NCBI RefSeq assembly: GCF_055900595.2 | Contig: NZ_CM148325.1 | Direction: 5' to 3' (one strand) | Length of the DNA stretch: 64,000 nt | Shown here: in pieces, positions 17,880-18,350 of the stretch | How the letters are laid out: each line of letters begins with the position of its first letter | Position numbering within the stretch: position 1 is the first letter of the stretch | Translations under genes and position numbers: made by a program | Notes under the pieces: generated by a model | Seen by the model: only the letters and a program-made list of their open reading frames with translations | What the model was told of the DNA's origin: nothing | Databases searched by the model: none

Positions 17880-17907
17880 TTGACTCATCGCGCCAGGTAA
17901 GTAGAAT
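17880..17907 (+). promoter_or_regulatory. sigma70 promoter of the glyW-cysT-leuZ tRNA operon
   Basis: TTGACT-N16-TAGAAT about 70 nt upstream of tRNA-Gly. Confidence 0.7.
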
Positions 17908-17980
17908 GCAACGCATCGAACGGCGGCACTGATTGCCAGACGATAATAAAATCAAGTGATTAACTGATTGCTTGATGAAT

Positions 17981-18056
17981 GCGGGAATAGCTCAGTTGGT
18001 AGAGCACGACCTTGCCAAGGTCGGGGTCGCGGGTTCGAGTCTCGTTTCCCGCTCCA
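17981..18056 (+). tRNA. glyW: tRNA-Gly (anticodon GCC)
   Basis: 76-nt cloverleaf GCGGGAATAGCTCAGTTGGTAGAGCACGACCTTGCCAAGGTCG...GCTCCA; anticodon loop TTGCCAA. Confidence 0.97.
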
Positions 18057-18110
18057 GTTTAAAAGACATCGGCCTCAAGCGGATGTCTGGCTGAAAGGCC
18101 TGAAGAATTT

Positions 18111-18184
18111 GGCGCGTTAACAAAGCGGTTATGTAGCGGATTGCAAATCCGTCTAGTCCGGTTCGACTCCGGAACGCGCCTCCA
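18111..18184 (+). tRNA. cysT: tRNA-Cys (anticodon GCA)
   Basis: 74 nt GGCGCGTTAACAAAGCGGTTATGTAGCGGATTGCAAATCCG...CGCGCCTCCA. Confidence 0.97.
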
Positions 18185-18196
18185 CTTTCTTCCCGA

Positions 18197-18283
18197 GCCC
18201 GGATGGTGGAATCGGTAGACACAAGGGATTTAAAATCCCTCGGCGTTCGCGCTGTGCGGGTTCAAGTCCCGCTCCGGGTACCA
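18197..18283 (+). tRNA. leuZ: tRNA-Leu (anticodon UAA), long variable arm
   Basis: 87 nt GCCCGGATGGTGGAATCGGTAGACACAAGGGATTTAAAATCCC...GGGTACCA. Confidence 0.97.
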
Positions 18284-18326
18284 TGGGAAAGATAAGAATA
18301 AAATCAAAGCAATAAGCAGTGTCGTG

Positions 18327-18350
18327 AAACCACCTTCGGGTGGTTTTTTT
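18327..18350 (+). terminator. Rho-independent terminator of the tRNA operon
   Basis: AAACCACC-TTCG-GGTGGTTT hairpin followed by T-run. Confidence 0.85.

Follow-up and report, generated by a model that had tools for sequence, protein, structure and literature searches.

An Escherichia coli glyW-cysT-leuZ operon with its 3'ETS-leuZ trailer and an unoccupied prophage attachment site

The stretch of 64 kb analyzed here (the window) very probably contains the native chromosomal glyW-cysT-leuZ operon of E. coli, complete with its 3'ETS sponge trailer and with the phage attachment site (attB) at leuZ unoccupied. A previous, sequence-only reading of the same DNA had proposed an intact tRNA operon without any integrated element for the range 17880-18350, which begins with the -35 hexamer and ends with the last U of the terminator. 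As a whole, this interpretation was supported, since every test that it had proposed gave results in agreement with it. According to the model favored here, a strong sigma-70 promoter would drive the synthesis of a single precursor transcript of glyW-cysT-leuZ, from which tRNA-Gly(GCC), tRNA-Cys(GCA) and tRNA-Leu(UAA) would be released by RNase processing. The 67-nt 3'ETS-leuZ at the end of the transcript would be terminated by an intrinsic terminator and would act as a sponge by base-pairing with RyhB. Regarding co-transcription, processing and sponge activity, the model follows the literature. In addition, the 3' half of leuZ together with the trailer constitutes the attB site for several families of prophages and islands encoding tyrosine integrases, a site that is empty in this strain. 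The features on which the argument is based are compiled in Table 1.

Table 1. Features of the operon, its flanking genes and the related phage attachment sites (window positions unless a phage sequence is named)
Feature	Position	Strand	Basis
pgsA, CDP-diacylglycerol--glycerol-3-phosphate 3-phosphatidyltransferase	17281-17829	+	NCBIfam NF008090 equivalog, full length
Putative sigma-70-type promoter	17880-17907	+	Consensus scan and cross-genus conservation
glyW, tRNA-Gly(GCC)	17981-18056	+	ARAGORN; Rfam RF00005, 65.9 bits
cysT, tRNA-Cys(GCA)	18111-18184	+	ARAGORN; Rfam RF00005, 54.0 bits
leuZ, tRNA-Leu(UAA)	18197-18283	+	ARAGORN; Rfam RF00005, 57.7 bits
attB block, single copy	18228-18352	+	Junction comparison with two occupied genomes
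3'ETS-leuZ, trailer sRNA, RyhB sponge in the literature	18284-18350	+	Identity to K-12 b4759
Intrinsic terminator	18326-18350	+	Fold, conservation, PMC6191717
yecA, UPF0149 family, SEC-C motif	18479-19144	+	NCBIfam NF007704 equivalog
attP of phage mEp390	L130 2500-2620		
attP of phage Fostie	L131 2501-2620		
attP of phage ZF40	L133 377-504		

Exactly three tRNA genes, all on the plus strand, were detected in the 64-kb window by ARAGORN, which assigned the anticodons GCC, GCA and UAA to them. All three also scored above the gathering score of the Rfam family RF00005, which is 29. In E. coli K-12 MG1655, the corresponding genes are named glyW, cysT and leuZ. The flanking genes were identified by NCBIfam equivalog models with 380 bits for pgsA (cut-off 304) and 437 bits for yecA (cut-off 149), and the former is also annotated as pgsA in the matching genomes. 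Further upstream uvrC and uvrY, and further downstream tyrP, yecH and ftnA, were recognized by equivalog models well above their cut-offs. The window thus shares the gene order uvrC-pgsA-glyW-cysT-leuZ-3'ETS-yecA-tyrP with the operon of K-12 MG1655 (b1911, b1910, b1909 and b4759). By megablast, a 2-kb stretch from pgsA to yecA was placed in 5,425 of 5,426 complete E. coli genomes, in which the same features are annotated. The cysT and leuZ genes and the 3'ETS are 100% identical to those of MG1655, and the intergenic region between pgsA and glyW, including the promoter, is identical as well. Two substitutions were found in the operon, one in glyW (A52G, position 18032) and one in the spacer between glyW and cysT (position 18074). 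Gene order, the pgsA and yecA flanks and the identity to K-12 assign the three genes to the E. coli glyW-cysT-leuZ operon, and the location between pgsA and yecA that had been read from the sequence agrees with the calls of ARAGORN, Rfam and the NCBIfam equivalogs.

The promoter upstream of glyW is composed of the hexamers TTGACT (17880-17885) and TAGAAT (17902-17907), which are separated by a 16-nt spacer and together match 10 of the 12 consensus positions. It was the sole sigma-70-like site retrieved by a consensus scan of the region 17700-18600, though one match per 900 bp is within chance, as shuffled sequences gave 0.6 on average. Because a 10/12 match alone is not significant, the conservation of the promoter was examined by an alignment of the window with the orthologous loci of E. 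albertii, two Citrobacter and two Enterobacter genomes. Both hexamers, an upstream element (AAAAATATCG) and the discriminator (GCAACGCATCG) proved to be invariant while the spacer, the leader and nearby bases vary. The discriminator following the -10 hexamer is rich in G+C (GCAACGC). These properties support the view that a real and strong promoter for stable RNA may be located at 17880-17907, and the sigma70 promoter proposed by the sequence-only reading was thus corroborated by hexamers that are invariant across Escherichia, Citrobacter and Enterobacter. An additional element at 17828-17861 is located after the stop codon of pgsA and ahead of the tRNA promoter. It is an inverted repeat of the form GATCGTTT-(16 nt)-AAACGATC that includes two GATC sites and whose arms, unlike its variable center, do not differ among Escherichia, Citrobacter and Enterobacter. 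The repeat precedes the expected start of the tRNA transcript by roughly 55-85 nt and could be a candidate for a weak pgsA terminator or for a protein-binding site, e.g. of Fis.

At the distal end of the operon, all 67 nucleotides following leuZ were found to be identical to the K-12 ncRNA b4759 (3'ETS-leuZ), a stretch that had not been mentioned in the sequence-only reading. This RNA is excised from the glyW-cysT-leuZ precursor, pairs with RyhB and lowers the RyhB level (PMC6191717 and work cited there). For K-12, its release by RNase E, the binding of Hfq and the titration of both RyhB and RybB in vivo have been described (PMC6191717). To assess the pairing, K-12 RyhB was used in an ungapped helix search and in a restricted duplex calculation with shuffle controls. 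A duplex prediction with full-length RyhB and the 3'ETS had resulted in a meaningless end-to-end pairing and was replaced by the helix search. Nucleotides 35-46 of RyhB and nucleotides 32-43 of the 3'ETS form a perfect helix of 12 bp, which is followed by a second helix of 7 bp. The calculated energy of the duplex is -27.2 kcal/mol, compared to -10.7 ± 2.7 kcal/mol for 500 shuffled sequences, none of which paired as well. The segment complementary to RyhB covers approximately the positions 18305-18326, and the pairing core was invariant in six enterobacterial sequences. Judging from its identity to the K-12 RNA and from the published data, the trailer encoded in the window probably acts as a sponge, too.

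Folding of the region 18284-18360 revealed a hairpin with a 9-bp stem and a UUCG loop, GAAACCACC-UUCG-GGUGGUUUU, at 18326-18347 and a tract of seven U residues at 18344-18350. The stem has a G+C core (CCACC/GGUGG) and is thus typical of an intrinsic terminator, in which a G+C-rich hairpin is directly followed by a U tract. In the alignment of Escherichia, Citrobacter and Enterobacter, the stem is invariant whereas the loop is variable. A Rho-independent terminator at the end of the leuZ trailer spacer has also been reported (PMC6191717). A consensus terminator scan of 17700-18600 returned no site at all, which has to be regarded as a false negative in view of the hairpin and the U7 tract seen by folding. 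The scanner missed the structure because the A-U extension of the stem takes up part of the T-run. Hence, the terminator that had been suggested at this position was confirmed by its fold and by the conservation of its stem across genera.

The tRNA gene leuZ has been named as an integration site of prophages and integrative elements in STEC (PMC8767318, PMC7067040). Among the complete E. coli genomes, the 2-kb stretch from pgsA to yecA was contiguous in 3,781 of 5,426. In the remaining genomes (~30%), the match breaks at window positions ~18349-18352 (query 1150-1153) in every row that was sampled. About 30% of the 5,426 complete genomes thus harbor a prophage or an island between the tRNA genes and yecA. 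To define the site, junctions of two occupied genomes, O157:H7 strain ATCC 43889 and the O25b:H4-ST131 strain 4993, were compared with the window. In both of them, attL and attR share a direct repeat of 124-125 bp that corresponds to window positions 18228/18229-18352, and which spans the leuZ anticodon loop, the 3' end of the tRNA gene, the whole 3'ETS and the terminator. The chromosomal context of these genomes is the same as in the window and their tRNA operon is identical or nearly so. What distinguishes them is a prophage of roughly 21-43 kb inserted between the terminator and yecA, accompanied by a second, partial copy of leuZ and the 3'ETS. ATCC 43889 possesses a degraded P2-like prophage whose integrase gene lies beside yecA, whereas strain 4993 carries a tailed prophage of ~43 kb with a tyrosine integrase gene directly beside leuZ. 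Neither prophage nor integrase is present in the window. Since the repeat begins in the anticodon loop of leuZ, the site is a classical tRNA attachment site, and a non-tRNA attB of the 'locH' type known for P2, considered because the match breaks immediately behind the terminator, was rejected for the same reason.

The elements integrating at leuZ are diverse. The integrases of the two prophages are only 27% identical over 123 residues, and their genes were found in 440 and 599 genomes, respectively. Hence, further types of integrases must account for the rest of the occupied sites. In E. coli Z0117EC0005, two large proteins with DUF262 domains are encoded directly beside yecA on the leuZ side (L134 45846-49915). 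Within the approximately 4.5 kb beyond yecA that were viewed, these genes look like a defense-type island rather than a prophage.

The corresponding block is also found on phage genomes. In the E. coli phages mEp390, for which attP is annotated, and Fostie as well as in the Pectobacterium phage ZF40, it is located beside the genes for integrase and excisionase and comprises the 3' half of leuZ, a trailer similar to the 3'ETS and the terminator. These sequences are homologous to window positions 18228-18354 and 80-89% identical to them, with altered hairpin loops and, in mEp390 and Fostie, a compensatory change in the T-stem. Although the 3'ETS copies of the phages have diverged, they kept the RyhB-pairing core GCAGTGTCGT (GCAATGTCGT in ZF40) and the stem of the terminator. 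As the attP sites carry their own leuZ 3' half and 3'ETS, lysogens would express a tRNA 3' half and a sponge that are supplied by the phage.

In contrast to the occupied genomes, the window shows none of the marks of an integration at leuZ, neither an integrase, nor a direct repeat, nor extra DNA. The junctions of the O157 and ST131 strains demonstrate that a duplicated tRNA 3' end, which the sequence-only reading had proposed to search for, is the correct diagnostic for an occupied leuZ site. When this search was performed, each of the tRNA 3' ends turned out to be present in a single copy in the window, even if up to three mismatches were allowed (no match expected by chance), and a comparison of the whole operon with the window (blastn-short, word size 7) gave only chance matches of up to 17 nt. 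The absence of an integrase, likewise claimed before, was ascertained by two approaches. Of the eight ORFs that reach into the intergenic region (17779-18629), not one matched a Pfam family at E <= 1, and a tblastn search of the whole window with the two leuZ-site integrases gave a best E-value of 0.93, while the positive controls reached 690-703 bits. Also the statement that there is no foreign DNA at the operon was upheld. The distance between leuZ and yecA is 195 bp as in K-12, and the stretch from pgsA to yecA is contiguous in many genomes and at least 99.9% identical to them. The window is collinear with the core chromosome of strain cq9 except for the variable region of fliC, an intergenic stretch of 177 bp and the last 1.6 kb. 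No insertion relative to the core chromosome was detected near the operon, and in the corresponding region of cq9 neither an integrase nor a transposase is annotated by PGAP. Since the block is single-copy, an integrase is lacking and the core chromosome is collinear, the site is an empty attB. A stretch of low G+C content at 21000-24000 was considered as foreign DNA and rejected, as cq9 has the ftnA-yecR-azuC-yecJ-ftnB stretch annotated at the corresponding place, and the same stretch occurs in ATCC 43889, the ST131 strain, AMSCJX02 and Z0117EC0005.

An empty site does not necessarily imply that it has always been empty. Site-specific excision leaves no scar, and with leuZ being used in about 30% of the genomes, it is conceivable that an earlier element was precisely excised from this chromosome, in which case the 3' half of leuZ, the 3'ETS and the terminator would be of phage origin. 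Such a history would even be invisible, because attL of the ST131 type shows no difference from the bacterial sequence within the 125-bp block. On the other hand, the block of the window does not differ from K-12 or from the attR copies on the bacterial side. It contains neither the phage-derived variants of the O157 strain (18292 A>C and 18350 T>C) nor the variants of the mEp390, Fostie and ZF40 attP sites, and a positive sign of a past integration was not seen in it. A cured lysogen is highly improbable in the light of these data, and the native block of an unoccupied site is the preferred explanation.

Another question is whether the operon may be called intact. This description applies to the three genes inasmuch as all of them were called as normal tRNAs, but glyW is not identical to the reference. 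It matches the K-12 gene at 75 of 76 positions and has a G at position 52, by which the A52-U62 pair of the T-stem is converted to G·U. An A is present at this position in K-12, cq9, the O157 and ST131 strains and in the nearest genome AMSCJX02. A query of 171 bp around position 18032 did not match perfectly in any of the 5,426 complete E. coli genomes (best match 170/171). Similarly, a search with a 40-mer containing G52 found no identical sequence among 100,044 species-representative genomes, nor did the metagenome collection contain one. The A52 40-mer was found in at least 120 stretches, ranging from Pseudomonas and Xanthomonadales to Enterobacterales. The G is either a private mutation or an error of sequencing or assembly. 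As AMSCJX02, the nearest complete genome over 25 kb, differs at eight positions, a private SNP would not by itself be unusual. It could be argued that the substitution impairs the folding, processing or modification of the T-arm and that glyW, buffered by other genes, is drifting toward loss, so that the operon would not be fully intact. Further tRNA-Gly(GCC) genes of K-12 are glyV, glyX and glyY, none of which is located within the window. This idea draws on the absence of G52 from all collections searched, on the conservation of the A52 40-mer from Pseudomonas to Enterobacterales, which suggests purifying selection at this position, and on the Rfam score, which drops from 69.1 to 65.9 bits, a loss of 3.2 bits. 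However, G·U is a standard pair that retains a purine opposite a pyrimidine at position 52, and the cloverleaf is destabilized by no more than 0.9 kcal/mol (-28.9 kcal/mol with A52, -28.0 kcal/mol with G52). Both ARAGORN and Rfam recognize the variant gene as a normal tRNA, far above the threshold, and a single-base error of sequencing or assembly explains the G equally well. An impaired glyW is thus extremely unlikely. It is also quite unlikely that G52 represents a real and viable isodecoder variant with an altered T-arm that changes the maturation or function of tRNA-Gly(GCC) in this strain, as opposed to a sequencing error or a neutral private SNP. Going by its sequence, the gene has one weakened pair in the T-stem and still looks like a functional tRNA.

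Some observations were made in other parts of the window and in its neighborhood. Just downstream of ruvC, an ORF for 505 amino acids on the plus strand (62435-63952) occupies the place of yebB in strain cq9. The deduced protein combines a hydrophobic multi-pass region at the N-terminus with a phosphate-binding domain of the PstS/PBP_like_2 type at the C-terminus (Pfam, 93 bits). Because the stretch with this ORF exists in only 8 of the 5,426 complete E. coli genomes, the gene is rare and can be considered an accessory gene or a replacement within a core locus. Around the tRNA operon, the eight genomes are not close to the window, and leuZ is occupied in Z0117EC0005, which belongs to them. The chromosome is a mosaic. 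Known sRNAs detected by Rfam are MicL (50574-50881, plus strand, 370 bits), C0465 (36506-36583, minus strand, 112 bits) and ES036/CssrF (54837-54879, plus strand, 68 bits), ordinary E. coli features that are unrelated to the tRNA operon. In strain cq9, PGAP annotated an integrase fragment of 41 codons between fliE and yedK (L001 2256-2378), about 540 bp before the position of the first base of the window. As this fragment lies outside the window and about 18 kb away from the tRNA operon, it is irrelevant to the leuZ site.

The operon, the 3'ETS sponge and the attB site in leuZ are all known already, and nothing new was added to them. The result is a clean negative, a well-characterized tRNA operon of E. 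coli in its reference configuration, which matters little except mainly for annotation. Two by-products of minor interest may be the T-stem substitution in glyW, which is unique so far, and the diverged sponge copies supplied by phages, which concern other genomes and not the window. For the annotation of this chromosome, the stretch following leuZ can be labeled as the 3'ETS-leuZ sRNA sponge, and the block 18228-18352 can be marked as an unoccupied attB, in contrast to roughly 30% of the sequenced E. coli genomes, where this site is in use.
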